Source: Verrucomicrobia bacterium GWF2_51_19
GTDB taxonomy: Bacteria > Verrucomicrobiota > Verrucomicrobiia > Opitutales > UBA12508
Direction of reading: 5' to 3'
Length of the DNA: 64,000 nucleotides
Assembly (NCBI GenBank): GCA_001831095.1
Contig: MIDP01000013.1
Location: forward strand, 2,364 to 66,363
This document shows positions 3,835-55,790 of the stretch, piece by piece. The notes beneath the pieces were generated by a model. The model was not told the origin of the DNA and made no database searches. It saw only the letters and a program-made list of their open reading frames with translations. The translations under genes and the position numbers were made by a program. Numbering within the stretch: the stretch's first letter is position 1; each line of letters starts with the position of its first letter.

Positions 3835-3958
3835 AAAGACAGATGCAAAATGGCTCTATAGCAAGGCCCGAGAAGCGAGGGCGACAGGAGCGTACGTTTG
3901 TACGTGACTTAGCCCGAACGACGAGAACGACGCTAGAGACCATTTTGCATCTGTCTTT
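3835..3958 (+). repeat. Family A structured intergenic element, copy A1
   Basis: A perfect 19-bp outer inverted repeat (aaagacagatgcaaaatgg / ccattttgcatctgtcttt) encloses the conserved core ctatagcaaggcccgag..gcgacaggagcgtacgtttgtacgtgacttagcccgaacgacgagaac..gctagag. The element supplies the last 8 codons and the stop of mrdA. Confidence 0.9.
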
Positions 3959-5834
3959 GCAATAGCCTTGCAAACTCCTTAAAAATCGCCCTGGCGACGG
4001 GGCCAGCAGTTGTTCCGCCGTAGAAGAGGTCGCGGTCGTCGCGCTCCTCAATTGCAACAGCAACCGCGATTTGTGGGTCTTCGATCGGTGCAAAGCCGAT
4101 GAACCACGCGATGTGCAAAAAGCGCTTGACGCCCGCCACGCGGATTTGCGCCGTGCCTGTCTTTGCGGCTATACGGAATCCTTGAACGGAGACTGATTTT
4201 GCTGTGCCTTCCGTCGAGGCCATTTCCATACCTTCGAGAAGCGCCTTCATGTGTTCGGGACGCAGGCCAATAGCCTCTCCGCCGTGTTTAGGTTGTTTGT
4301 GGGTGTCGTGGACGAGCGTTGGTTGCGTACGCGTCTCTCCTCGAGCCAATGAGGCAACAAAGCAGGCCATTTGCAGCGGAGTTACCCGCGTAAACCCCTG
4401 TCCCTGTACCATATTGGCTGTATCACCACCCGTCCAAGAGCCCAGATCGCGGCGCTTTTTCCATTGCTTGTCGGGAATGAGACTGCTTGGCGTCTCTGGC
4501 AACTCGATGTGCGTGACCTGATTTAGGCCAAAACGCCTGGCCTCGTCGGCAAGCATCTCGTGGCCACACTTCAGCGCGTGTTCGATGAAAAATGGATTGC
4601 AACTGAGCGAAATCGCGTGGCGGAAGTCGAGTTGCCCGTGTCCCCAAAGGTTGTTGCAGTGAAACTGGCGGTTGCCAACCATTATCGAGCCAACACAGTT
4701 GTGGACGTCATGCGGGTCGAGGTAACCGTTGCGAAGCATCGCGATCGATGCAATCACCTTAAACGGCGACCCCGGCGGATAGAGCCCCTGCGTCGCACGA
4801 TTCACCCAGGCGCCCCTTTCGGTAATCGCGTCGTAGGTAGCTTGCGGAAGATAGGGCGTGAAGTCGTTGAGGTCGAAGTCTGGCTTGCTCGCCAACACAA
4901 GGACCTCGCCCGTTCGCACGTCGAGCGCCACCGCCGCACCACGATTGTCGCCCAGGGCCATTTCAGCCACTTCTTGGAGGTCGGCATCGAGGCTGCAATA
5001 GAAATCTTTGCCCTGCTCCGGGTGCTTTTTCAACAGCTGTTCGTACTTGTAACCAGACGGGTCGACCAGGCAGACTTCGTACCCGCTGAGGCCCTGCAAA
5101 TGGCTGTCAAAGCGCGCCTCCAGGCCCATCTTGCCCGATTTCCCCTTGATGCTAAAAGTGGTCAAATTCTCGCCCGGCACGCTGTCAGCCGTTTCCGACG
5201 ACGACACGACGTACCCCAAGGTGTGCGCCGCCAGCGAGTCGTAGGGGTAGACGCGGACACTGTCAACGTACACCTGAATTGGGTAACGCACAGGCAATTG
5301 CTCGGTCAGGATCGCATACTCCTGCGGCGTCAAGTCCTCGATCAGCGTCATCGGCAACAACATGTGTTGATAAAAGTGACGCTCCAGCTTTTTGGGATCA
5401 ATCTGGACGTTTTTTTGAAGCAGTGCGTTGATCTTGTCTAAATACTTTTGCAAAACCGCTGCCCGAGCAACACGTTTAATGTCATCACGGTCGACGCGCT
5501 CGTTCTTTTCGCGCTGCTCGCGGACAAGCTGGATGTACCTCTCGGCAAACTCCTTGCGCAACTCCTCCAAATACGCCACAACGCAGAAACGTGGACGATT
5601 GCCCACCAACAATATCCCTTTTCGATCGTAAATATTGCCACGCGTCCCAGGTGTTATCAACCGCCGCATGCTCTGCTGCTGCTCCTTTTCCTCGTAAATC
5701 GACGCCTGTATAAGCTGCCTCCACGCGAGTCCAAAAAACAGCGTAGCAAACGCCACCCCACTCAATAAGTAAAAAAAACGTATGCGCGGCGTGAAACTCC
5801 GGTGAGACTCGAAGGGCTTTTCATCTGCTTTCAT
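3933..5834 (-). CDS. mrdA: Penicillin-binding protein 2 (elongasome transpeptidase)
   Basis: N-terminal TM anchor, PBP dimerisation domain and transpeptidase domain (SPFK, KTGTA motifs). I chose the start at 5834 (MKADEK) because it forms an ATGA overlap with the mreD stop; the ORF-track start is 5858. Confidence 0.9.
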   Translation of the reverse strand: MKADEKPFESHRSFTPRIRFFYLLSGVAFATLFFGLAWRQLIQASIYEEKEQQQSMRRLITPGTRGNIYDRKGILLVGNRPRFCVVAYLEELRKEFAERYIQLVREQREKNERVDRDDIKRVARAAVLQKYLDKINALLQKNVQIDPKKLERHFYQHMLLPMTLIEDLTPQEYAILTEQLPVRYPIQVYVDSVRVYPYDSLAAHTLGYVVSSSETADSVPGENLTTFSIKGKSGKMGLEARFDSHLQGLSGYEVCLVDPSGYKYEQLLKKHPEQGKDFYCSLDADLQEVAEMALGDNRGAAVALDVRTGEVLVLASKPDFDLNDFTPYLPQATYDAITERGAWVNRATQGLYPPGSPFKVIASIAMLRNGYLDPHDVHNCVGSIMVGNRQFHCNNLWGHGQLDFRHAISLSCNPFFIEHALKCGHEMLADEARRFGLNQVTHIELPETPSSLIPDKQWKKRRDLGSWTGGDTANMVQGQGFTRVTPLQMACFVASLARGETRTQPTLVHDTHKQPKHGGEAIGLRPEHMKALLEGMEMASTEGTAKSVSVQGFRIAAKTGTAQIRVAGVKRFLHIAWFIGFAPIEDPQIAVAVAIEERDDRDLFYGGTTAGPVARAIFKEFARLLQRQMQNGL

Positions 5835-6331
5835 TGGCTCGCCTTTTTCAAAAACCAACTCTGCAATTCAAAAAACCAAAGCGCAACAGGAAATATTGTC
5901 AATGTTGAAAAAATCAAGTCGCCAACAGTCCTCGTCCAATACCCACATGCATGCCAATGCGGCTGCCCCAACAAGAAAATCTGGGCAATCCCCAGTAACG
6001 CGTTCAAAACAACCGCTAAACAGGCCGCTTGAAAGAAGTTACACTTTTGGAAAACATTTCTGAAAGCCGCTAATAACCCGTACCCAACCGCAAATAATAC
6101 CAACGATTGCCCCGAGGTCACCGGCAGTAACGCGTCAAAAAAATACCCCGTCAAAGCCATGCACAATAACCCTTGAAATACATTTAAATATAACCCCGAA
6201 TAAACCACCAACGCACCCCCCCAATATAAATACACAGCTAACCCACTCAACCCACTGTTCACCACTCCGTTCAGTCCTATCAGAACCCCGTTACTCACCA
6301 AAAATATAAAAAATCTTAAGTCTCTATGCAT
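5831..6331 (-). CDS. mreD: Rod-shape-determining protein MreD-like
   Basis: 166-aa polytopic membrane protein immediately upstream of mrdA and overlapping it. The call rests on size, topology and synteny only. Confidence 0.6.
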   Translation of the reverse strand: MHRDLRFFIFLVSNGVLIGLNGVVNSGLSGLAVYLYWGGALVVYSGLYLNVFQGLLCMALTGYFFDALLPVTSGQSLVLFAVGYGLLAAFRNVFQKCNFFQAACLAVVLNALLGIAQIFLLGQPHWHACGYWTRTVGDLIFSTLTIFPVALWFFELQSWFLKKASQ

Positions 6332-6345
6332 GTGAACGTTGTACT

Positions 6346-6444
6346 CGGGAAACCCTTTTTATAGAATAAAAAGTGTTTCCCGAACCCTTCCCAAAAACAC
6401 TTTTTTAGCGAAACATAAAAATACTTCGTATTTTTTTATTTCGC
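6346..6444 (-). repeat. Family B two-hairpin element, copy B1
   Basis: Read on the minus strand, hairpin 2 (6408-6444, gcgaaa..tttcgc type) comes first, then hairpin 1 (6346-6382, gggaaac..gtttccc type). The mreD ATG follows 15 nt later. Confidence 0.85.
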
Positions 6445-6480
6445 AAAACTTTTTTTAAAAACGGCAGCAAAAAACAAAGT

Positions 6481-6604
6481 AAGGCCGCTTCAAGATGCGC
6501 CTATAGCCAGGCCCGAGGAGTGAGGGCGACAGGAGCCTACTTAAGGTAGGTGACTTAGCCCGATCGACGAGAACGCCGCTAGAGGCGCATCTTGAAGCGG
6601 CCTT
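6481..6604 (+). repeat. Family A element, copy A2
   Basis: Perfect 20-bp outer inverted repeat aaggccgcttcaagatgcgc / gcgcatcttgaagcggcctt. The core is the same as A1, but the central hairpin is cctac-ttaag-gtagg. Confidence 0.9.
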
Positions 6605-6850
6605 TTGCAGCGTTAAAAATAGATGCAAAAATGCGGCTTGGCGCGAGCACGATTCGGCCGTAGCGGCATGGCGATCCATCCGGCTTCTCCAATTTTTTTG
6701 CGAAATATAAAAATGCATGCATTTTTGTGTTTCGCTTTAAAAGTTTTTTGGAGAGGGGGTCGGGGAGAGACTTTTTTTCAAAAAAGTCTTTCCCCGTGGC
6801 CAGTCGGCGGAGCGAGAAACGCATTTTGGCGCTATTTTCAACGCTGTCTT
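6605..6850 (+). repeat. Family T2 element, copy T2-1, interrupted by a family B copy
   Basis: The left part (6605-6692, ..aaaaatagatgcaaaaatgcggcttggcgcgagcacgattcggccgtagcg..) and right part (6796-6850, ..ggccagtcggcggagcgagaaacgcattttggcgctattttcaacgctgtctt) align with the uninterrupted copies. B2 lies between them. The right end overlaps the PP2C stop codon. Confidence 0.8.
6700..6795 (+). repeat. Family B element, copy B2 (nested inside T2-1)
   Basis: Hairpin 2 at 6700-6735 (gcgaaatataaaaatgcatgcatttttgtgtttcgc) and hairpin 1 at 6762-6795 (ggggagagactttttttcaaaaaagtctttcccc). Confidence 0.85.
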
Positions 6851-7577
6851 AAAAGAAGAGGGCGATGGCAGAGAGATTATCCGGAGCCTCCTTCTCGTAG
6901 GCAATTTTTTTAATTTCTGCGAGTAGATGTTCGGGTGTATCGTAGGCCTTCATGAGCATGCCCATGCGGTGTTCGCTGATAGTTTTGGTAACGCCGTCTG
7001 TGTAAAGGAGAAGTTTATCGCCAGGGAGAAGCTCGTGTTCATAGAAGTCAATATCGAGGCTTGGACGTTGGCCGAGGCAGCGTGTGAGTGTGTGGTAGAG
7101 CTGTTCGGGAATGGAGGTGTATTTGCGTTTTTCCTCAGAGAGTGACTGCCAAATCTCCTGGGCGACTGTGTGGTCTCGAGTGAGCTGTTGGATTTCGCGG
7201 TTGCGGAAGAGGTAGATACCGCTGTCACCGGCGTGGCCGATTGAGAAGAAGTTTTCGCGGAAGGACAACGCTGTCAAAGTTGTGGCGATGCCGTACTCGG
7301 GGTAGAGTTTTTTGCCTTCGTCGAAGATTTTTTTATTGATGTCGTTGAAAATGATGTCCCAATCGACGGGCCGGCCTGGCAAGGAATTGGCCTTGAAGAG
7401 TCCAGCGAGGTCACGGACTGCAATTTGGCTGGCGACGTCACCATCGGGCAGGCCTCCGAGGCCATCGGCGACGGCATAGAGATGTAAGTCATTGTCAATG
7501 AGAAAAGAGTCATCGTTTTTCTCTCGCCCCAGGCCGATATCCGTAAAGCCGGCAACCTTAAATTTTATCTCGGACAT
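6849..7577 (-). CDS. PP2C-family Ser/Thr protein phosphatase
   Basis: 242 aa with PP2C motifs (GREKNDDSF, AVADGLGG, DGVT). Confidence 0.85.
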   Translation of the reverse strand: MSEIKFKVAGFTDIGLGREKNDDSFLIDNDLHLYAVADGLGGLPDGDVASQIAVRDLAGLFKANSLPGRPVDWDIIFNDINKKIFDEGKKLYPEYGIATTLTALSFRENFFSIGHAGDSGIYLFRNREIQQLTRDHTVAQEIWQSLSEEKRKYTSIPEQLYHTLTRCLGQRPSLDIDFYEHELLPGDKLLLYTDGVTKTISEHRMGMLMKAYDTPEHLLAEIKKIAYEKEAPDNLSAIALFF

Positions 7578-8550: not shown

Positions 8551-8680
8551 AAAGACTGATGCAAAATAGATGCAAAAATGTGGCTTTGCGCGAGTATGAC
8601 CCGGCGTAGCGTACATAGACGTACGTGAGCAAGTCAACGGAGCGCGAAACGCGTTTTGGCGCTATTTTGACTCTGTCTTT
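8551..8680 (+). repeat. Family T2 element, copy T2-2 (complete)
   Basis: aaagactgatgcaaaatag..atgcaaaaatgtggctttgcgcgag..ccggcgtagcgtacatagacgtacgtgagc..ggagcgcgaaacgcgttttggcgctattttgactctgtcttt. Confidence 0.85.
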
Positions 8681-8698
8681 AGGTAGTGTTTTTGATAA

Positions 8699-8736
8699 GG
8701 GGCCTAACCCTCTTTATTGTGTAAAAAGGGTTCCCC
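8699..8736 (-). terminator. B-hairpin-1-like imperfect palindrome downstream of gap (candidate terminator)
   Basis: ggggcctaaccctcttt..aaaaagggttcccc lies 18 nt after the gap stop. The stem is imperfect and there is no clean U-tract. Confidence 0.35.
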
Positions 8737-8753
8737 GGCGATTCTGATCGATT

Positions 8754-11743: not shown

Positions 11744-12298
11744 CTAATTCCAGCCAGACAAAGGTCCTTGCGCGATACGATACACTTCGAGGAGTTCGGG
11801 TTCGGTATGGACATCGATGCGGCCAGCGCGATCGTCCTGGAAGCGGACGGCAGTGATATTAAAGGGATCGCCGTAGTTCATGAGGCATTTGGCAGTCTGC
11901 GCCCAAACGGCTACTGGCTCGGAAAGGGACTCACCTTTTTCGATGGCAATTTCGACCGCGCGATCGATGACAGCCGGGTCGCAGAGTGGGAAATTGACGT
12001 TAAAATTGACATGGACGTCGCCTGGAAAGTTTTGCAAAATATGCTGAAAAACGGGCACTGACGGCACCTTATCACCAGCCAACTCCGGCGGACGACGCAG
12101 CGCAATCACGCCAAAGTCCTTCGCGATACGCGCAATCAGCTCGCTCTCGGTCGACACGACAATCTCGTCAACGAGTTTTGCTTGCCTCAACTTCTGTATA
12201 CCGAGCCCCAGCATCGGCACCCCAGCGAACGGCAGTATGTTCTTATACGGCAGCCTCTTACTTCCGAGACGCGCTATAATGGATCCTATAACTTTCAT
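11744..12298 (-). CDS. Acylneuraminate/CMP-sugar cytidylyltransferase-family protein (short)
   Basis: N-terminal IARLGSKRLPYKN motif and a VSTE segment, typical of the NeuA/KdsB-like CTP-transferase fold. Confidence 0.7.
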   Translation of the reverse strand: MKVIGSIIARLGSKRLPYKNILPFAGVPMLGLGIQKLRQAKLVDEIVVSTESELIARIAKDFGVIALRRPPELAGDKVPSVPVFQHILQNFPGDVHVNFNVNFPLCDPAVIDRAVEIAIEKGESLSEPVAVWAQTAKCLMNYGDPFNITAVRFQDDRAGRIDVHTEPELLEVYRIAQGPLSGWN

Positions 12299-12304
12299 AA
12301 TTTA

Positions 12305-12401
12305 TTGGGACAACCTTTTTTGAAAAAAAGGCTTTCCCAAGCCCTTTCTAAAAAACTGTTAAAGCGAAACACAAAAAATACTACGTATTTTTATATTTCG
12401 C
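12305..12401 (-). repeat. Family B element, copy B3
   Basis: Hairpin 1 at 12305-12340 ends 7 nt from the ATG (12298) of the minus-strand cytidylyltransferase gene. Hairpin 2 is at 12364-12401. Confidence 0.85.
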
Positions 12402-12470
12402 TATAAAATTTTGAGAAAAGTTTTGGAAACTTTTATTCAACAAAAGGCATAACGTTATTGTCATGACTGA

Positions 12471-15093
<2,623 letters not shown>

Positions 15094-15095
<2 letters not shown>

Positions 15096-15222
15096 AGAAC
15101 GATAAAAATGGCACCCAGCTTCGTTTCGCGCTCCGCCGACTGCCTCACGTACCTCTATGTACGCTACGGCAGATCGTGCTCGCGCAAAGCCAAACCTGTG
15201 CATCCATTTTTTATCGTTCTTC
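15094..15222 (-). repeat. Family T2 element, copy T2-3 (complete, inverted)
   Basis: The outer arms gaagaacgataaaaatgg / ccattttttatcgttcttc pair with a single-nt bulge. The inner stem is ctgcc..ggcag around gtagcgtac-ataga-ggtacgtga. The left end overlaps the gyrB TGA. Confidence 0.85.
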
Positions 15223-15269
15223 AGCTCCAATGATGACCAGTATACCAATACAAATAATCAATGAATTTT

Positions 15270-15368
15270 GCGAAATAGAAAAATACGCAGTATTTTTATG
15301 TTTCGCATAAAAAAGTGTTTTTAGGAAGGGTCTGGGAAACCTTTTTTATTCTATAAAAAGGGTTTCCC
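15270..15368 (+). repeat. Family B element, copy B4
   Basis: Hairpin 2 at 15270-15306 and hairpin 1 at 15334-15368; the gyrA ATG follows 16 nt later. Confidence 0.85.
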
Positions 15369-15384
15369 TGTTCAAAATTTTCAT

Positions 15385-17835
15385 ATGTACACGGAAAAGG
15401 AAAAAGTAATATCCAGCAACATTTGCGAGATCATGCAAGGAGCCTACATTGACTACTCGATGTCGGTTATTGTAAGTCGGGCGTTACCGGACGCGCGGGA
15501 TGGATTAAAGCCGGTTCAGCGGCGAATATTATACGCGATGTTGCGTGAAGGGCTGTTGCACAATCGTCCATTTGACAAATGTGCGGGCGTTGTTGGTGAA
15601 GTTTTGAAAAACTACCACCCGCACGGTGACAGTTCTGTCTACGACACGCTTGTTCGCTTGGCGCAGCCGTGGGTCTTGCATCATCCATTGATTGATCCGC
15701 AGGGAAACTTTGGCTCAATCGACGGTGATTCGGCGGCGGCCTATCGTTACACGGAGTGTCGGTTGAAGGCGATCGCGGAAGAGATGTTAAAAAACCTCGA
15801 TGAAAACACCGTTGATTTTGGCCCGAACTACAAAGAGAGCACGACGGAGCCGCTGGTATTGCCGGCCGCCTTCCCTAACCTTCTTGTCAATGGCTCCACA
15901 GGCATCGCGGTTGGCATGACGACGAACATTCCGCCACACAACCTCGGTGAAATCATCGACACCGCCTGTGAGATCATCGACAACCCCAACATTTCCCTCG
16001 ACGACATTAGCCAGATCATTCAGGGGCCAGACTTTCCTACGGGCGGGTACATTGTCGGCAAAAAGGGCATTGCGAGCTACCTCAAAAATGGCCGCGGCAT
16101 CGTTCGCGTTCGCGGGAAAGCGCACACCGAGGACCTCAAAAACGGCAAAGAACAGATCGTTCTCACGGAAATCCCGTACAACGTCAACCGCGCGTCGTTG
16201 GTTGAACGCATTGCCGAGCTCGTACAGGACAAGATTTTAACCGAGGTCAGCGACCTCCGCGATGAGTCGACCGAGACCACACGTATCGTCATTGAGCTGA
16301 AGCGCGGTGAAGTTCCACGGGTCGTCCTCAACAAGCTCTACAAACACACGCCGTTTGAGTCCTCGTTTGGTGTCATTCTTTTGGCCCTCGACAAGCAGCG
16401 GCCGAAACAGATGAACATCAAAGAAATGCTCGAATGCTTCATCGAGCACCGCCGCGAAGTCATCTATCGCCGCACCGCCTTTCAGTTGGCAAAGGCCGAA
16501 GAGCGCGCCCACATTCTCGAAGGCTACCGCATCGCCCTCGACAACCTCGACGACATTGTCAGGATCATTCGGAAATCGTCCAACCGCGAAGAGGCCCGCA
16601 TCGAGCTGATGAAGATCTACCCGCTAACGGAGACCCAGACAAACGCCATCCTCGACCTCCGCCTCTACCAACTCACCGGACTGGAACGCGAAAAGATCGA
16701 CCTCGAATTCCAAGATCTGGCGGAACGCATCGCCTATTACCGCTCCATTCTCGAAAACGAGTCAAAGCTGTTGGGCATCGTCAAATCGGAGCTGAAAGAG
16801 ATTCGCGAAAAGTACACTCTTCCGCGTCGCACGGAAATCATTCCCGACGAGACCGAATTCCGCCTCGAAGACGTCATTGCCAACGTCGGCTGCATCATCA
16901 CAGTCACGCACAACGGCTTTATCAAACGCACAGAAGTTAGTTCCTACAAATCTCAAAAACGCGGCGGCAAGGGCGTCATCGGCACCGGCCAACACGACGA
17001 GGACTTCGTTGAGCACCTCTTTACGGCCAGCACCCACGACTACGTCATGTTCGTCATGACCAATGGCCGCGTCTACGTTGAAAAGGTCTACGAGATTCCA
17101 GAGGGCACACGCATCTCAAAGGGTCGATCCCTCGTCAATGTCCTCGAAATGCCACAGGAGGAAAAACTCGCCTCCATGCTCTGCTTCAAGGAGTTCGCGG
17201 AAGGCATCCATATTGTCATGGCCACCGAAAAAGGTATCACGAAAAAAACCAACATTATGGCCTACGTCAATTACCGAAAGGGCGGCATCATCGGCATACA
17301 GATCGACGACGGTGACCGCGTCATCGACGCCCGCCTCACCAACGGCCAGAACGAAATCATTCTCATCACCCAAAACGGCATGTCCATTCGCTTCAACGAG
17401 GACGACCTCCGTGATCAGGGCCGTGTCACTCGAGGGGTTATCGGCATTCGCTTAAAAGAGTCCGATTGTGTCAAGGCCATGACCGTCGTCTACCCTGACC
17501 GCACCCTTCTCATTGCAGGAAAGAACGGCCAAGGTAAACGTTCGAGCTTCGACGACTATAAACTCCAAAAACGCGCCGGAAGCGGCCTCATCGCCATTAA
17601 GACTCCAGGTGTCGCAGGTGCCCTCGGTGTCCACGACAACGAAGAAGTGATGCTCCTAACCAAGTCCGGTCAGGCGGTCCGCTTCCCAGTCAAAGATGTC
17701 CGCATTATCGGTCGCACGACACAGGGCGTCCGCCTCATCAACCTCAGCAAAAATGATCAACTCATCGGTATCTGCCGCGTCATCAAAACCGATGAAGAAG
17801 CCGTTGATGTAATCGAAGAGGCCGAAGGGTCATAG
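15385..17835 (+). CDS. gyrA: DNA gyrase subunit A
   Basis: Motifs RALPDARDGLKPVQRR, HPHGD and AAAYRYTE (catalytic Tyr), plus C-terminal beta-pinwheel repeats. Confidence 0.97.
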   Translation: MYTEKEKVISSNICEIMQGAYIDYSMSVIVSRALPDARDGLKPVQRRILYAMLREGLLHNRPFDKCAGVVGEVLKNYHPHGDSSVYDTLVRLAQPWVLHHPLIDPQGNFGSIDGDSAAAYRYTECRLKAIAEEMLKNLDENTVDFGPNYKESTTEPLVLPAAFPNLLVNGSTGIAVGMTTNIPPHNLGEIIDTACEIIDNPNISLDDISQIIQGPDFPTGGYIVGKKGIASYLKNGRGIVRVRGKAHTEDLKNGKEQIVLTEIPYNVNRASLVERIAELVQDKILTEVSDLRDESTETTRIVIELKRGEVPRVVLNKLYKHTPFESSFGVILLALDKQRPKQMNIKEMLECFIEHRREVIYRRTAFQLAKAEERAHILEGYRIALDNLDDIVRIIRKSSNREEARIELMKIYPLTETQTNAILDLRLYQLTGLEREKIDLEFQDLAERIAYYRSILENESKLLGIVKSELKEIREKYTLPRRTEIIPDETEFRLEDVIANVGCIITVTHNGFIKRTEVSSYKSQKRGGKGVIGTGQHDEDFVEHLFTASTHDYVMFVMTNGRVYVEKVYEIPEGTRISKGRSLVNVLEMPQEEKLASMLCFKEFAEGIHIVMATEKGITKKTNIMAYVNYRKGGIIGIQIDDGDRVIDARLTNGQNEIILITQNGMSIRFNEDDLRDQGRVTRGVIGIRLKESDCVKAMTVVYPDRTLLIAGKNGQGKRSSFDDYKLQKRAGSGLIAIKTPGVAGALGVHDNEEVMLLTKSGQAVRFPVKDVRIIGRTTQGVRLINLSKNDQLIGICRVIKTDEEAVDVIEEAEGS

Positions 17836-46792: not shown

Positions 46793-48012
46793 TGAAGCCA
46801 ATTCACAACATCACACTGACTGTGCTTACCCGATTTATTCAGATGTTTGCTGGCTTCTCCGTCGCCGTTCTAACGGCCCGCTTTCTGGGACCCACGCTTC
46901 GCGGTGAGTATTTTTTATACATGAATTTCGTTGCCATCGCCATCCAATTTGGCGATTTGGGCTTTTCGATATCAACCATGTATCAGTCTGCCAAACACCC
47001 GGACTCGAAACAATCACTCGTTCCTCTTTTCACAATCATCGCAGGCGTAATTGGAATACTCGCTTGGGTTGCACTGATACTCGCAAGCAAGGAGGTTTTC
47101 CATCTATTGGATATTAAATTAAACTATGCATTTCTGGTCGGTATCGGTATCCCTTTCGGCTTATATGCGCTCTTTGCTAGCAATTGGTTGATAGGTGCTG
47201 GAAAAATTCATGTGTACAATGGCGTTGAAAGTATCAAGCAACTCTTTTTGGTGAGCAGTCTGTGTTTTTTCGGATTACAGTATGCCTCATTAGATCTATT
47301 TTTATGCTTAAGCATCGCCTCCTCCATTCTCAGCGCGCTCATCCTCAGTCGGTGGACGTTGAAATGTGGCTTTGTTTTCAAGTTTGACCGGGCGCTGTTT
47401 GGTTCACAATTTCATTACGCAGCGAAATCTTGGATCATCAGCTGCTTGTTTTTTGGAATGTCGCGGTTTATTGTCTTGTGGATGGACGCTTATACGACAA
47501 AAGAGGCCCTCGGCATTTGGTCTATTGCTTTGCAGATCGGTGACGCCATCTCGATTATTCCCTGCGCCATTGGCCAGGTAATGTTCGCTGACACCGTTGC
47601 GGCAGACGATCCTTGGAAAGTCGCTAAGGGCTATATTCGCCAAACCGCTTGGATCATGACCCTGGCCTGCTTGGGTGCCGCGGTGGTCGGCTTTCCTCTC
47701 ATACGCTTGGCCTTTGGCAAACCTTATGAAGGGGCCTATTTCCAACTGCTTTTTCTCCTGCCTGGAATATGGCTGCGCGGCATCTTGAGCCCACTCGGAC
47801 AATACATCGGGGCGATCGGACAGCCCTTGTACGTTGTTCCAGTCTGGGGAGGAGGCTTACTCGTGTCCATGACGCTGGGATGGTTCTTCATCCGACAATG
47901 GCAGGGCATCGGGGCAATGATCAGTATTTCGATAGCCTATGTATTCGTCTCTGCTTGCCTGTGGATCTTGGCCACGCGCAACAGAAAACAATTGATTGGC
48001 GTTAAAGTGTAG
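46792..48012 (+). CDS. wzx: Polysaccharide flippase (MOP/Wzx family)
   Basis: ~12 TM helices and a typical oligosaccharide-flippase length. The start MKPIHN overlaps the upstream stop (TGATG). Confidence 0.75.
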   Translation: MKPIHNITLTVLTRFIQMFAGFSVAVLTARFLGPTLRGEYFLYMNFVAIAIQFGDLGFSISTMYQSAKHPDSKQSLVPLFTIIAGVIGILAWVALILASKEVFHLLDIKLNYAFLVGIGIPFGLYALFASNWLIGAGKIHVYNGVESIKQLFLVSSLCFFGLQYASLDLFLCLSIASSILSALILSRWTLKCGFVFKFDRALFGSQFHYAAKSWIISCLFFGMSRFIVLWMDAYTTKEALGIWSIALQIGDAISIIPCAIGQVMFADTVAADDPWKVAKGYIRQTAWIMTLACLGAAVVGFPLIRLAFGKPYEGAYFQLLFLLPGIWLRGILSPLGQYIGAIGQPLYVVPVWGGGLLVSMTLGWFFIRQWQGIGAMISISIAYVFVSACLWILATRNRKQLIGVKV

Positions 48013-48041
48013 TCCCGGTCGAAGTGAACAAAAGTGACATT

Positions 48042-49343
48042 TTAGGTCTCTTTAAGGGCCTTTTGTTCACTGATCCCAGGCCCGTGAAACAGCGGCCAAA
48101 AGAGAAATAAAAAGAGATAGCTGCCAACGTTGATAGAGCTGAGCCTGCAAAAATCATAATCATGAAAGCATAGCAGAAAAAAGATAATAAAGCCAATAAA
48201 ACATACCCATTGTTTCTGTTCGTAAGAAATACGCAATCCCTTGTATAGAAGCCATAGTATAATGAATAGCACAAAAATGCCATTGGCTAAAAAATGATCA
48301 ATAAACAAATTGTGAGTTTTGCTGTCCCTATTTTTGTATTTTTTTAACAATGAATACTGGTCAAATCCTATACCATGCAACACAATACGGTATACTGGTA
48401 AGTTGTTCTGTGCAATGATTTCAGGCAATTCACGCCATTGACTGAAACGTTTGTTCATTGTTCCCAAAAAACCTGGACTCGGAGTAGTTTTAATTTTGGC
48501 ATGAACTAAATACTGATAAATAACATTTAACTCAGGTATAGTTTTTTCTCTTTCGAAAGCTATTGTAACAGTAAGTAAAGATAAACTAACAAACAATAAA
48601 GCCTTCCACCATAATTTAAAATGGATGATGACAATGAAAGGTAAAAGTAGCCATGCGGCTCGAGTATATACTAGAACAATAACAACAATAGACGCCACAA
48701 AAAAAAGCATCAAAAGTAGTTTTTTATAACGTTTGCCACCAGTCAAAATAATAGGCGCAATCAGCAAGGCCAAGGTCAAATAATTAGTGGATGAATTAAC
48801 GTTCCCAAAAAATCTTAGAAAATACATATCATAACAGTACCGCAGAAAAATAAGGCCCGTTAACCCATTCTTTTGTTTAAATACATTGAAGAGCGTTTCT
48901 CGATCTTTATAAAATAAAAGCGCCAAAACAATGATTAAAAAGATGGTATAGGAGAGAAAAAAAGAGTAGAAAAAGTATGATTGTAGGTGCTTGCGTGTAC
49001 TTAAAAATAACAAGATAATACAGGGGCTTAAAAAGCCAAGTAAAAACTCTCGAAAAGCCAGGGCTTGTCGGTCTGAGAAAAATAGGGCCAAAATAACCTG
49101 AATCGTTCCAATAGCTAGGAAGGCACACAATATCTTAAAAAACTGTCCCGAGACACGTTGCTTATCGCGAACCATAAAAAATAGTATTAAAATGGCAGCC
49201 ATAATATGAATGACTCTAAAAATTCCTAGACCCAGCCATATGGAAAGAGATGCACGAGTAAATGGGATTGTGACAGCGGCAACAATAACTGATGCCATTT
49301 CTAAAAAATTATATGAAAGCCGCTGCTTTATGTTTATTTGCAT
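48042..49343 (-). CDS. O-antigen polymerase/ligase-like polytopic membrane protein (Wzy/WaaL superfamily)
   Basis: ~10-12 TM helices with a large loop near the C-terminal third. Strikingly A/T-rich compared with its neighbours. The start is taken at MQINIK, 1 nt from the stop of the upstream glycosyltransferase. Confidence 0.7.
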   Translation of the reverse strand: MQINIKQRLSYNFLEMASVIVAAVTIPFTRASLSIWLGLGIFRVIHIMAAILILFFMVRDKQRVSGQFFKILCAFLAIGTIQVILALFFSDRQALAFREFLLGFLSPCIILLFLSTRKHLQSYFFYSFFLSYTIFLIIVLALLFYKDRETLFNVFKQKNGLTGLIFLRYCYDMYFLRFFGNVNSSTNYLTLALLIAPIILTGGKRYKKLLLMLFFVASIVVIVLVYTRAAWLLLPFIVIIHFKLWWKALLFVSLSLLTVTIAFEREKTIPELNVIYQYLVHAKIKTTPSPGFLGTMNKRFSQWRELPEIIAQNNLPVYRIVLHGIGFDQYSLLKKYKNRDSKTHNLFIDHFLANGIFVLFIILWLLYKGLRISYEQKQWVCFIGFIIFFLLCFHDYDFCRLSSINVGSYLFLFLFWPLFHGPGISEQKALKET

Positions 49344-49344
49344 G

Positions 49345-51078
49345 TTAAAATCCTTCCAAGATCGCCTCAACGTGGTGTTCCCATGTGTAGTGATCCAAGG
49401 CGAGTTTTCTAGCGTTTTTACCCAAGCTACAACGTAAGTCTAAATTGGCAACTATTTTTTCAATGGCGAGAGCTAATTCTTTTACATTTCCCGGTTGAAC
49501 CAAACACGCGACGGCGTTTTCGTTCGAGCAGCGTTCAAGGCTATCAACGCGTACTGCGTTTTGTAAAATGGAGCCAATTTGTTCCAAGTCCGACGCTATA
49601 ATGGCTTTCCCCATGCACATATATTCGAACAATTTTGTGGGCGAACCGAAGAATTTAGAGCCATCGGCGTTGGGTACGTGCGGTGAGACCAAAACATCCG
49701 CAATCGACAAATACAATGGCGCCTGTTCTTGTCTCACCAATCCAGTGAGCGTCACAAAGGACCCCGTTGCGTGTTGTCCCAAAATGTCTTTGACAACGGG
49801 CATTTTCAGACCATCGCCGATCAAAAGAAAATGGACTTTGTTGGATTGAAGCCATTCGGTGCGTGTCTCTATCAACTCTCGAATGGCCGCGGCCAAAACG
49901 TCGACGCCATGCCATTGACCAAACGTGCCAATAAAGCCAAACACACAGGCGTCATGGGATATCTGCCATTGTTGCCTCAATGTATGTTTTTCAACATTCG
50001 AAAACCGCGCTGGATCAAACAAGGTCGGATCGACACAATTGGGATAAGTGACAATGCGTTCAGGCTCAACGCCACGGGCAATCAATTCATCGCGGAGGAC
50101 CTCTGAAACGGTAACGATCCGGTGGGCATGGCGCAAGTTAACAGCCTCTACCTGTTCTGCGATTTTTTGAAACATGAGCGGCCTTCCCCAATTGCGGGCA
50201 ACCCACACTTCCGATCCGTTGTATTCCAAGATCAGAGGCACTCCCCATTCACGGGCGAGAACGACACCAGAGTAATTGGCCGTTGAGAGGCGTTGATAGA
50301 TCCATCTGGGCTTTTGCTTCACCATTTTTCTCGCTTGACGCAGTATGGCGTAGTGAAAGCGGTAGTAGTTGCAGATATTGGGTGAGCCAAAGTATTTTGG
50401 GGCTTCTAAAGGGAAAAAAGCGACGTTCGAACGCAGCATTTCATTTTTAGACACAGATAAAAAGTGGATAGCATATCCCTTCGCCAACGCGTTGACGACT
50501 CCAGCGATATGGCCAACCGAGCCGCCTGCTTGAACCCCAAACCAAAGGTTAGCGTTGAGGTAAACGATGTTTTTGTTTTCAGAAACTACAGGAGATGCTG
50601 CCCGATCGATTTTCAACCAATGGCGCACGTCCGCCGCCACTTTGAATAGGGCAAACATTGACAGCAGTGAAGCTCCTATAACATGGAATAGCGCTGGTAT
50701 CGCCGACAGACGACTGACGGGCGCAAAAGCCTCATTTTCAACACGGTAGAGCGTTTTTGCGCGAGTCATGGAAGCACACAAAAGTAAGACTTCTTTCAGA
50801 CAAGCGCTGTTTTCCGTTTCGCAAAGTAGCAAAAGTTCGGACGGCATACATTGTCTCAACGTCACCAACATTTTCCAGAGTGAAAGTTTACGAATGTTGG
50901 TAAATGTGAGGTTCGTAAAGGGACGGCCCCATTTATTTTTGAAACGCAAAGTATCTTCTTGCGTCAACGGAGAGATAGAAAAAATACAGGAATCTGTGTT
51001 CACATCAGACTGACAAGACGCATTTTCTCTCATTATGGCACCTAGTAAGTCAATATTCTTGGAAAGATCAAGCGACAA
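49345..51078 (-). CDS. Family 4 glycosyltransferase with a ~170-aa N-terminal extension
   Basis: The C-terminal GT-B domain has FIGTFGQWHG and SPTKLFEYMCMGKAII (E-x7-E-like). The N-terminal extension contains a hydrophobic helix. Confidence 0.8.
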   Translation of the reverse strand: MSLDLSKNIDLLGAIMRENASCQSDVNTDSCIFSISPLTQEDTLRFKNKWGRPFTNLTFTNIRKLSLWKMLVTLRQCMPSELLLLCETENSACLKEVLLLCASMTRAKTLYRVENEAFAPVSRLSAIPALFHVIGASLLSMFALFKVAADVRHWLKIDRAASPVVSENKNIVYLNANLWFGVQAGGSVGHIAGVVNALAKGYAIHFLSVSKNEMLRSNVAFFPLEAPKYFGSPNICNYYRFHYAILRQARKMVKQKPRWIYQRLSTANYSGVVLAREWGVPLILEYNGSEVWVARNWGRPLMFQKIAEQVEAVNLRHAHRIVTVSEVLRDELIARGVEPERIVTYPNCVDPTLFDPARFSNVEKHTLRQQWQISHDACVFGFIGTFGQWHGVDVLAAAIRELIETRTEWLQSNKVHFLLIGDGLKMPVVKDILGQHATGSFVTLTGLVRQEQAPLYLSIADVLVSPHVPNADGSKFFGSPTKLFEYMCMGKAIIASDLEQIGSILQNAVRVDSLERCSNENAVACLVQPGNVKELALAIEKIVANLDLRCSLGKNARKLALDHYTWEHHVEAILEGF

Positions 51079-54554: not shown

Positions 54555-54627
54555 AAAGGCTCGAAGAAAAATGGCAGAATCGTGCGCAGCGCGAAACGCA
54601 TTTTGGCGCCATTTTACAACGGTCTTT
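54555..54627 (+). repeat. Internally deleted T2 element
   Basis: aaaggctcgaagaaaaatgg..cagaatcgtgcgcagcgcgaaacgcattttggcgccattttacaacggtcttt. The right half matches T2-1 and T2-2. Confidence 0.6.
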
Positions 54628-55440: not shown

Positions 55441-55654
55441 GCCGCGGCATGGCGCACAGATCTTTGTATATCAATAACTTACGAACTGCAAAGACCGTTG
55501 GAAAATGGCCGGCAAGGCCGTTTTTTCAAAACTAAGTGATTAATGCGAAAAGACCGTTGAAAAATGGATGCAAAAATGTGGCTTTGCGCGAGTACGATCT
55601 GCCGTAGCGTACATTTGTGCACAGGTCTTAGTCTATCAATAACTTACAAATGAA
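55441..55654 (+). repeat. Cluster of truncated repeat pieces
   Basis: Contents: a T2 central fragment; a solo terminal arm at 55490; a truncated T2-4 at 55549-55629; and a duplicated tatcaataacttac spacer at 55469-55483 and 55634-55648. The terminal arm aaagaccgttg(g/a)aaaatgg occurs in direct orientation at 55490, 55549 and 55655. The unit cacagRtctt..tatcaataacttacRaa..aaagaccgttgRaaaatgg occurs twice. Confidence 0.75.
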
Positions 55655-55778
55655 AAAGACCGTTGAAAAATGGCTCTATAGCAAGGCCCGAGGAGCGAGG
55701 GCGACAGGAGCGTACGTTGGTACGTGACTTAGCCCGAACGACGAGAACGCCGCTAGAGGACATTTTTCAACGGTCTTT
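55655..55778 (+). repeat. Family A element, copy A5
   Basis: The outer arms aaagaccgttgaaaaatgg / acatttttcaacggtcttt pair at 18 of 19 positions. The core is nearly identical to A1. Confidence 0.9.
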
Positions 55779-55790
55779 TCGGTCTTTTAT

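Follow-up and report, generated by a model that had tools for sequence, protein, structure and literature searches.

How does the gap between two bacterial genes come to consist almost wholly of repeated sequence, with one repeat seated inside another? We take up this question for a 517-nt intergenic spacer (positions 6332-6848) of Verrucomicrobia bacterium GWF2_51_19, which lies in a 64,000-nt stretch of contig MIDP01000013.1 (the window) between a 166-amino-acid membrane-protein-like open reading frame (ORF) and the gene for a PP2C-family phosphatase. About 485 of the 517 nt (~94%) are copies of three repeat families, here named A, T2 and B: along the spacer run a B copy (B1), 32 unique nucleotides, an A copy (A2), and a 248-nt T2 element (T2-1, 6605-6852) that carries a B-like double hairpin at its apex. 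We consider it probable that the spacer was put together by accretion from three units, each belonging to a genome-wide family of structured palindromes that would spread in a hairpin-dependent manner with the T2 apex as a hotspot, and that it is not locally evolved sequence.

An earlier note, made from the sequence alone, had parsed the spacer as B1, A2, a left part of T2-1, B2 and a right part of T2-1, and self-blastn of the window together with repeat finding recovers every one of these segments near the coordinates it gave, with E-values for the segment matches from 1e-9 to 1e-31. The note's total of ~470 nt of repeat rightly made nearly all of the spacer repetitive and was too low in amount, the only unique stretch being the A/T-rich linker at 6449-6480, which has no self-blast match. 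B1 (6330-6448, reverse strand; hairpin 1 at 6346-6382, hairpin 2 at 6408-6444) was delimited by blast, alignment and folding (-28 to -32 kcal/mol, z about -7); it is 87.5% identical to the reverse complement (rc) of 15266-15384 upstream of gyrA (E 6e-31) and also matches 12307-12418. A2 (6481-6604, forward), a copy of the 124-nt A palindrome, folds at -76.2 kcal/mol (z -8.8), and its match region 6472-6605 is 84% identical to rc25719-25851 (E 2e-30), with further matches at 3836-3958, 55656-55779 and rc54451-54537. Its 22-bp outer stem (AAGGCCGCTTCAAGATGCGCC / GGCGCATCTTGAAGCGGCCTT) departs from the family consensus at many positions, and every one of these changes is compensated on the other side, with the conserved core kept.

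T2-1, all on the forward strand, directly abuts A2, and the outermost 4-5 nt of its left arm (6605-6665) are degenerate at that junction; matches to 6611-6665 lie at 8563-8611, 55555-55609 and rc15162-15211, and matches to the end of the element (6795-6850; right arm 6798-6852) at 8624-8679, rc15100-15149 and 54584-54626. Between the arms stand a leader (6666-6699) and a B-derived core (6700-6797, the B2 of the earlier note; hairpin 2 at 6700-6735, hairpin 1 at 6761-6796) that folds at -42.9 kcal/mol (z -6.9) and, over 6685-6797, is 81% identical to rc12307-12417 (E 5e-21), with a further match at 15266-15371. Alignment with two short uninterrupted copies, T2-2 (8551-8680, forward, our reference; after it, at 8685-8737, comes a B fragment with hairpin 1 alone) and T2-3 (15095-15221, reverse; followed by a full B copy at 15264-15384, forward, directly before the gyrA ATG), places the extra ~130 nt exactly at the apical CGTAC-loop-GTACG. 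B2 is thus seated where uninterrupted T2 copies have their central hairpin, and T2 sequence resumes after it (...GGCCAGTCGGCGGAGCG...), both as the note had described. Its T2 left part, drawn to 6692, is T2 up to 6665; the leader beyond is restricted to a nested subfamily, T2B, being present in all 10 T2B copies and without match in short T2 copies, and in the fold it holds a small hairpin (GGCATGG-CGAT-CCATCC) plus TTCTCCAA, which pairs with TTGGAGAG at 6747-6754. Two independent assemblies (ENA and JGI) are identical over the whole spacer, which is therefore real and not an assembly artefact; of two others, one has an N-gap at this place and one stops within B2. An apparent 189-nt deletion of the spacer in GCA_003530575.1 proved to be a scaffold N-gap, not a polymorphism.

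The sample in which the families were counted comprises ~475 kb of non-redundant sequence of the host, about a fifth of the genome, and yields after filtering about 81 T2, 64 A and 29 B copies. The window, which is unbiased, has 2.1 kb of repeats (about 3%), all intergenic or overlapping only terminal codons. What is known of the wider distribution of T2 comes from a scan of JGI metagenomes with a T2-specific pattern, which gave 56 loci, all from two assemblies of the same strain (99.7-100% identity) except for two chance matches. Most of the ~140 repeat sites are singletons (116), with 21 pairs and 2 triples, and the spacer studied here is the largest of all at 523 nt. One pairing recurs: A in reverse orientation, a 23-33-nt linker (H1) containing TTTCGTAAGTTGTTAAT, then T2 in forward orientation, with at least 12 such junctions carrying TTTCGTAAGTTGTTAAT; a second linker (H2, GTATTCATTTAGTTAGAT) precedes other copies and is found at 8 junctions.

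What the units have in common is structure. Both A (124 nt) and T2 (about 130 nt) fold as long imperfect rod hairpins (z -5 to -9), begin and end as AAAGACC...GGTCTTT, and share an apex of the form AGCGTAC-loop-GTACGTGA; their common ~19-nt terminus (AAAGACCGTTGAAAAATGG) has 11 matches in the window against 0.04 expected, which excludes chance, and the shared terminus and apex together mark A and T2 as sister families. The pairing is upheld by covariation: across 46 distinct T2 sequences and 45 pairs, 97.5% of cells are paired and 22 pairs have changed on both sides, whereas none of 500 shuffles reaches any observed measure and the paired fraction drops to 27-51% when partners are slid by 1-3 columns; for A, 36 sequences and 38 pairs give 21 compensatory pairs and 96% of cells paired. 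Only the outer 5 nt of T2 (AAGAC/GTCTT) are fixed, the rest of the terminal repeat covarying; the internal loops are nearly invariant and more conserved than the stems; all T2 copies have inner arms with more than 90% invariance; and across 35 sequences the A core shows no variation. All three T2 subfamilies have GTAG-CG immediately 5' of the apical hairpin (GTAG-CGTAC-loop-GTACG), a unit embedded in the 130-nt rod, and the equivalent position in A reads GGAG, not GTAG. The apex of T2 (for example 8604-8612, GTAGCGTAC) also contains TAGCGT, which we take to match the CS-6 motif of ssoA single-strand origins and which may be a coincidence; ssoA-type origins of rolling-circle plasmids are strand-specific hairpins of ~130 nt that present CS-6 in the terminal loop.

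Among co-directional neighbours T2 lies antisense in 35 cases and sense in 5 under strict gene calls (43 versus 7 under looser calls, binomial p 2e-7), and since gene direction flips several times in the window and T2 orientation flips along with it, the bias is tied to transcription and not to replication. For 65 T2 copies with long flanks, counting ORFs of at least 120 codons, a long ORF reads into the right end of 46, with a stop codon that begins -6 to +1 nt of the terminus in 26; at the left end 11 long ORFs read in, and none has its stop within 6 nt. The spacer offers a clear instance, where two bases of the PP2C stop TAA (6851-6849) come from the final T's of GTCTT (6846-6850), the terminus of T2-1; gyrB ends likewise in T2-3 (15093-15099), and fusion to a stop codon is also seen in several A copies, A1 at the PBP2 stop being one. 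Candidate explanations are a targeting of stop codons or terminators, or a stop codon borne by the element itself. We favour a model in which T2 inserts with a set polarity right at the 3' end of an ORF and the run of T's at its terminus contributes to the stop codon; T2-1 would have come to sit on the PP2C stop in this way.

Direct evidence of insertion comes from another phylum. A search of 185,579 species representatives with the A-core pattern gave a single match, in a metagenome-assembled genome of Candidatus Cryptobacteroides sp. (Bacteroidales; JBJEBQ010000046.1, our locus L064), where an A-like 135-nt palindrome with the same conserved core occupies the last codons of dnaA (4762-4897). 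Its apex covaries (TTAC/GTAA), its outer stem is recognisably related, and dnaA reads into its right arm to end ...LVPVGSK at a stop codon inside the element; the filled junction is present in three independent run assemblies. Three relatives with conserved dnaA-peptidase synteny (DnaA identity 87% and 75%) have empty sites, at L065 2931-3079, L067 2925-3002 and L068 2928-3019, with spacers of 147, 76 and 90 nt and DnaA proteins that end ...VPVRR or ...VPARR. Filled and empty sites together show the A type inserting right at the 3' terminus of an ORF and providing the gene with a new stop codon. The A element is absent from the plasmid and viral contig collections searched, and no paper in the literature searched contains the A core sequence.

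B behaves differently. It consists of two hairpins and a conserved linker, with compensated differences between copies, and about 9 of the 18 free B copies that contain hairpin 1 stand no more than 45 nt upstream of a start codon in the order hairpin 2, hairpin 1, ATG, among them B1 (before the mreD-like gene), 15264-15384 (gyrA) and 12299-12418 (a CTP-transferase-family gene). On the gene strand B1 reads hairpin 2, hairpin 1, 14 nt, ATG, and the copies in front of gyrA and of the gene at 12298 are placed and oriented likewise. Free B therefore looks like a gene-start-proximal module rather than an obviously mobile repeat, and B1 would be such a module in its usual place, part of the 5' region of the downstream gene. 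Consensus scans found no sigma-70 promoter directed toward the genes with an upstream B, in a host whose promoter type may differ from the sigma-70 consensus. A terminator reading was tried and set aside, there being no G+C-rich stem-loop with a T-run on either strand of 6332-6852, nor in the B and T2 copies at 12200-15450.

Could the elements be primarily functional RNAs or cis-acting structures, their mobility being secondary? Candidate roles are 3'-end hairpins (mRNA stabilisation, termination, or stalling of terminating ribosomes), antisense small-RNA genes, and, for B, a 5' leader or promoter. Such roles would suit the internal loops that are more conserved than stems, the A core conserved across two phyla, the strong bias of T2 relative to transcription as gene direction flips, its fusion to stop codons, and the free B copies just upstream of start codons; they would also suit the conserved G-U pairs by which one T2 strand folds better than the other (-53.5 versus -38.6 kcal/mol), and the whole spacer, which as sense RNA forms four independent folding domains (z -11.3). 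Against them, A has no significant orientation bias (15 versus 8), the better-folding T2 strand is the antisense one, the elements hold no terminator-like or sigma-70-like sites in the relevant direction, and the empty site in relatives shows real insertion, at least for the A type. Nor does any Rfam family match: searches for the three families gave no match in the window, only tRNAs at five further loci and none for the Cryptobacteroides copy, and at E<=1 the spacer drew sub-threshold hairpin look-alikes only (MIR7510, 36 bits against a threshold of 93). A tRNA and tmRNA search found nothing for the repeats, and a search on REP sequences and ribosome stalling returned nothing in the literature covered. 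We regard a primary RNA function as possible, though not the reading we would choose, and as compatible with hairpin-dependent spread, not exclusive of it.

The nested structure of T2-1 bears more closely on how the spread may have occurred. T2B comprises at least 10 distinct loci with distinct flanks (window 6605, L055 2937, L027 3826, L045 3077, L046 3777, L032 13468, L041 3344, L029 9893, L018 2796 and a truncated copy at L018 472), at each of which T2 arms surround the same leader and B-derived core at the same break points, the core replacing the T2 apical hairpin at a fixed point between GTAGCG and TGGCCAGTCGG. Folded, T2B is a three-way structure with the leader paired to the B linker, and the B core inside it is directed antisense into the gene upstream. 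Among the ten cores, eight are near-identical (97-100%), loop and linker positions included, whereas the outer arms are 55-88% identical (average 69-73%) and represent both arm types of short T2. In the cores of L055 and L027 hairpin 1 is still of the free-B type (ATTCTATAAAA loop), so that these two look like intermediates, or older variants. Relative to free B copies the T2B cores are 48-81% identical (about 63%). In a second subfamily, T2C, with six copies or more, including 57950-58143 on the reverse strand (followed by a degenerate A copy at 58168-58283), an unrelated ~90-nt multi-hairpin centre starts at the same GTAGCG point; a different centre at the same break point shows the T2 apex to be a general hotspot.

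These observations allow a composite subfamily that transposes as a unit to be weighed. T2-1 would then have arrived pre-formed, its arms drifting by compensatory change while the core was constrained, and the uniform leader, core and break points of all 10 T2B copies, the abundance of compensatory change in the stems, and a T2B polarity that is the same as in other T2 copies are all as such a history would have them. What it accommodates poorly is the contrast between cores that are identical even in loops and linkers and arms that have diverged into both short-T2 types. In none of the nine full copies, moreover, do the arms match another T2B better than they match a short T2, and there is one tie (0.92 versus 0.83 for L041, 0.83 versus 0.58 for L018, 0.79 versus 0.72 for T2-1). 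With short T2 copies outnumbering T2B six to one, nearest-neighbour counts by themselves are weak; the sizes of these gaps, beside near-identical cores, are not. Unit transposition is accordingly rather unlikely in our estimate, and the near-identity of the cores, set against arms that are diverged and like those of short T2, argues instead that the core spread among pre-existing T2 elements.

From this pattern in the sequences, the core was probably acquired secondarily and repeatedly, whether by apex-specific insertion or by gene conversion, and neither a single insertion nor a simple ride with one T2 lineage would suffice. T2-1 is one member of a propagated nested subfamily, and the event need not have occurred in this spacer. 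The earlier note had taken the nesting as direct evidence of a secondary insertion, and from it had deduced that at least one of the families was mobile or recombinogenic. The B-like segment is indeed secondary inside T2, and its core was acquired secondarily; with the same composite at 10 or more loci the nesting does not attest to an event in this particular spacer, and the mobile partner is probably not free B. That note thought that the nesting would be overturned if the segment belonged to another full-length T2 variant, present elsewhere and free of B similarity: a full-length variant does occur elsewhere, but it has B similarity, so the objection holds only by half.

If the elements move, they leave no target-site duplication (TSD). 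When each palindrome was extended to its end before the flanks were compared, 6 of 86 copies had matching 2-nt flanks, where chance predicts ~5, and 1 copy each had matching 3-nt and 4-nt flanks; a TA target was also negative, and the short duplications flanking B2 for which the earlier note had advised a search were not found. A classical origin as miniature inverted-repeat transposable elements, derived from a DDE-transposase insertion sequence (IS) with the same terminal inverted repeats, would explain why small elements in many copies lie between genes and end in a conserved ~19-nt terminal inverted repeat. It is very unlikely, however, given the missing TSD, supposed terminal repeats that covary and are fixed only in the outer AAGAC, and no IS with these ends in about 475 kb; where inverted termini stand 350-4000 nt apart, as an autonomous partner would have them, the ten ORFs they bracket are ordinary genes, an XerD and unknowns. 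Hardly tenable is a local one-off in which a free B transposed into a resident T2 of this spacer: B1 is only 250 nt away and B2 does lie between two T2 halves, but the B2 core is 97-100% like other T2B cores and only about 63% (48-81%) like free B copies, B1 included, the T2B-specific leader at 6666-6699 is present, and no short duplication flanks B2.

We therefore return to accretion by hairpin-dependent spread as the preferred account. In it, A and T2 would be related non-coding rod hairpins that spread without TSD, as REP/REPIN elements (repetitive extragenic palindromes and their hairpin-forming doublets) do, and that accumulate in mosaics resembling bacterial interspersed mosaic elements (BIMEs). 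A B-derived double hairpin with its ~30-nt leader would have been captured once at a T2 apex, and the B core would then have spread to at least 10 T2 copies with different arms, T2-1 among them. Two routes serve equally well. The core module may have inserted specifically into the T2 apex, much as IS1397 reportedly inserts into palindromic units; or ectopic gene conversion may have carried it, with the inner arms, which hardly vary, as primers and no change to the outer arms. SbcCD cleaves long palindromes at the tips of their hairpins, and a break of this kind might be repaired from a T2B donor under the guidance of inner arms that are more than 90% invariant among all T2 copies. The spread of A and T2 themselves might depend on an enzyme that acts on single-stranded DNA or hairpins, and the elements may have a function besides.

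Several points weigh against this account. The ~475 kb sampled, about a fifth of the genome, contained no recognisable transposase of any type, and tblastn searches of ~600 kb with IS200 TnpA and RayT, using approximate query sequences, gave best E-values of 0.19 and 0.51, the best RayT match being an arginyl-tRNA synthetase. The mobility of T2 and of the B core is deduced from copy number and the core-arm contrast, since the assemblies are all of one strain and show no presence/absence polymorphism for T2, B or T2B: a genome scan with PP2C gave no relative, the exact PP2C protein is confined to contigs of that strain, which agree throughout the spacer, and the nearest homologues, at 42-45% identity, have another gene order. 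The elements have conserved internal loops and a length of 125-250 nt, much above the 20-40 nt of classical REPs, and the conserved loops and strand bias could instead reflect RNA function. A bolder proposal, which we make tentatively and think doubtful, is that A and T2 represent an undescribed cross-phylum class of ~130-nt hairpins: the asymmetric core, rather than the ends, would be recognised; TSD-free insertion of fixed polarity into last codons would donate the stop; the apex would be a docking site for propagated modules (here the B-type double hairpin, normally found before start codons and pointing antisense into the upstream gene); and a host enzyme, or an unknown one, would act on single-stranded hairpins.

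The genes on either side of the spacer are both on the reverse strand. The 166-amino-acid ORF (5831-6331, start codon 6331-6329) is also called in the loci L001 and L002; the earlier note labelled it mreD, and its position overlapping the PBP2 gene (3933-5858) is the sole support that suggests this identity, since it has no MreD match in Pfam or NCBIfam. The PP2C-family gene (6849-7577) matches Pfam PP2C_2 at E 3.9e-13. Elsewhere in the window, G+C falls to 0.39 at 48001-50000 from about 0.50 in other parts. A 70-nt mini-T2 (54558-54627) lies upstream of the triose-phosphate isomerase gene, and downstream of that gene 55454-55509 and 55619-55674 form a duplication of 165-nt period, which copies native flank together with an H1 linker and an element terminus and adjoins a T2 left half truncated at the apex (55549-55614).

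Another non-coding segment of ~500 nt is also multi-copy, at 78-83% identity (L024 348-874, L012 5607-6104, L038 4948-5467, L023 5288-5851, L051 7996-8563 and L056 ~400-700). It holds 57-60-nt tandem repeats flanked by an inverted AAAAAGTCAAGCTTTTTCG motif, and one locus has 2 tandem copies in the Ga0154578 assembly (L056) but 3 in the Ga0209417 assembly (L058); considered as IS elements, these segments (L024, L012, L023 and others) proved to have no ORFs and are simply another non-coding repeat. Short-read unitig assemblies break in palindromes, one (L004) ending inside hairpin 1 of B2 and three (L070-L072) all ending at the same base past the A-like apex. As a consequence, elements of this kind are likely to be under-represented, or to lie at contig ends, in public metagenome assemblies.

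If our account is right, the spacer offers a new example of mobile palindromic DNA inserting at gene ends, built from three families that have no Rfam entry. For annotation, these are three unannotated structured repeat families that make up about 3% of the sequence, disrupt assemblies, give rise to false ORFs, and set the true stop codons of many genes, gyrB, PBP2 and PP2C among them. They also form an unusually clean natural series—a short palindrome, two independent apex-expanded subfamilies, and intermediates—in which the histories of core and arms are uncoupled, as expected if broken palindrome centres are mended with ectopic copies as templates, or if hairpin tips are the target of a non-coding module. 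Given the fixed polarity and a filled and an empty site in another phylum, targeting of ORF 3' ends becomes a testable claim; should the elements be confined to one lineage, they would simply be a new REP/BIME-like system in an uncultured verrucomicrobium.

How, then, do these elements compare with known systems? Integron attC sites are imperfect palindromes of similar length, recognised by structure, with covarying stems and action on one strand. As a candidate identity attC was rejected: the termini here vary (CCGTTG, CCGATG, CCTATG, CCTGTG) without the RYYYAAC/GTTRRRY core-site consensus, and the copies are dispersed singly among housekeeping genes in both orientations with no cassette array; the only tyrosine recombinase met is an ordinary XerD. 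The Correia elements of Neisseria and the ERIC/IRU elements of enterobacteria are imperfect intergenic palindromes of 100-160 nt, co-transcribed, with size variants by internal segment, and it is in size and in such variants that they resemble A and T2; Correia elements, however, duplicate a TA target, where we find no TSD, and there is no sequence similarity. IS1397 and ISKpn1, which reportedly insert into the loop of palindromic units, share with T2B the landing of secondary DNA in the apex of a REP-type hairpin, and differ in being full IS that encode a transposase, the module here being a ~130-nt non-coding double hairpin.

Closer still are the REP/REPIN elements, which are mobilised by RAYT (TnpA-REP) tyrosine HUH transposases. 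A, T2 and B resemble them as extragenic, high-copy hairpins with compensatory change, no TSD, and clustering with conserved linkers, and compensatory changes are common in REPIN hairpins (PMC3116915). The GTAG at the foot of the T2 apical hairpin may be a further likeness, GTAG-tagged REPs being abundant in the verrucomicrobium Opitutus terrae (PMC3733652). The units differ in being rods of 125-250 nt, three to six times REP size, instead of 20-40-nt palindromes or simple REP doublets; A lacks the GTAG, and approximate queries brought up no RAYT gene in the ~475 kb sampled. We know of no described REPIN property that corresponds to the strict polarity and stop-codon fusion of T2. BIMEs, the enterobacterial mosaics of palindromic units joined by conserved linker motifs, are matched here by palindromic units in fixed relative orientation joined by the conserved H1 and H2 linkers, and differ in sequences, unit size and phylum. 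We file A, T2 and B as REP/REPIN/BIME-like, a term of likeness and not of established membership, with REP/REPIN elements and BIMEs as their closest known systems.

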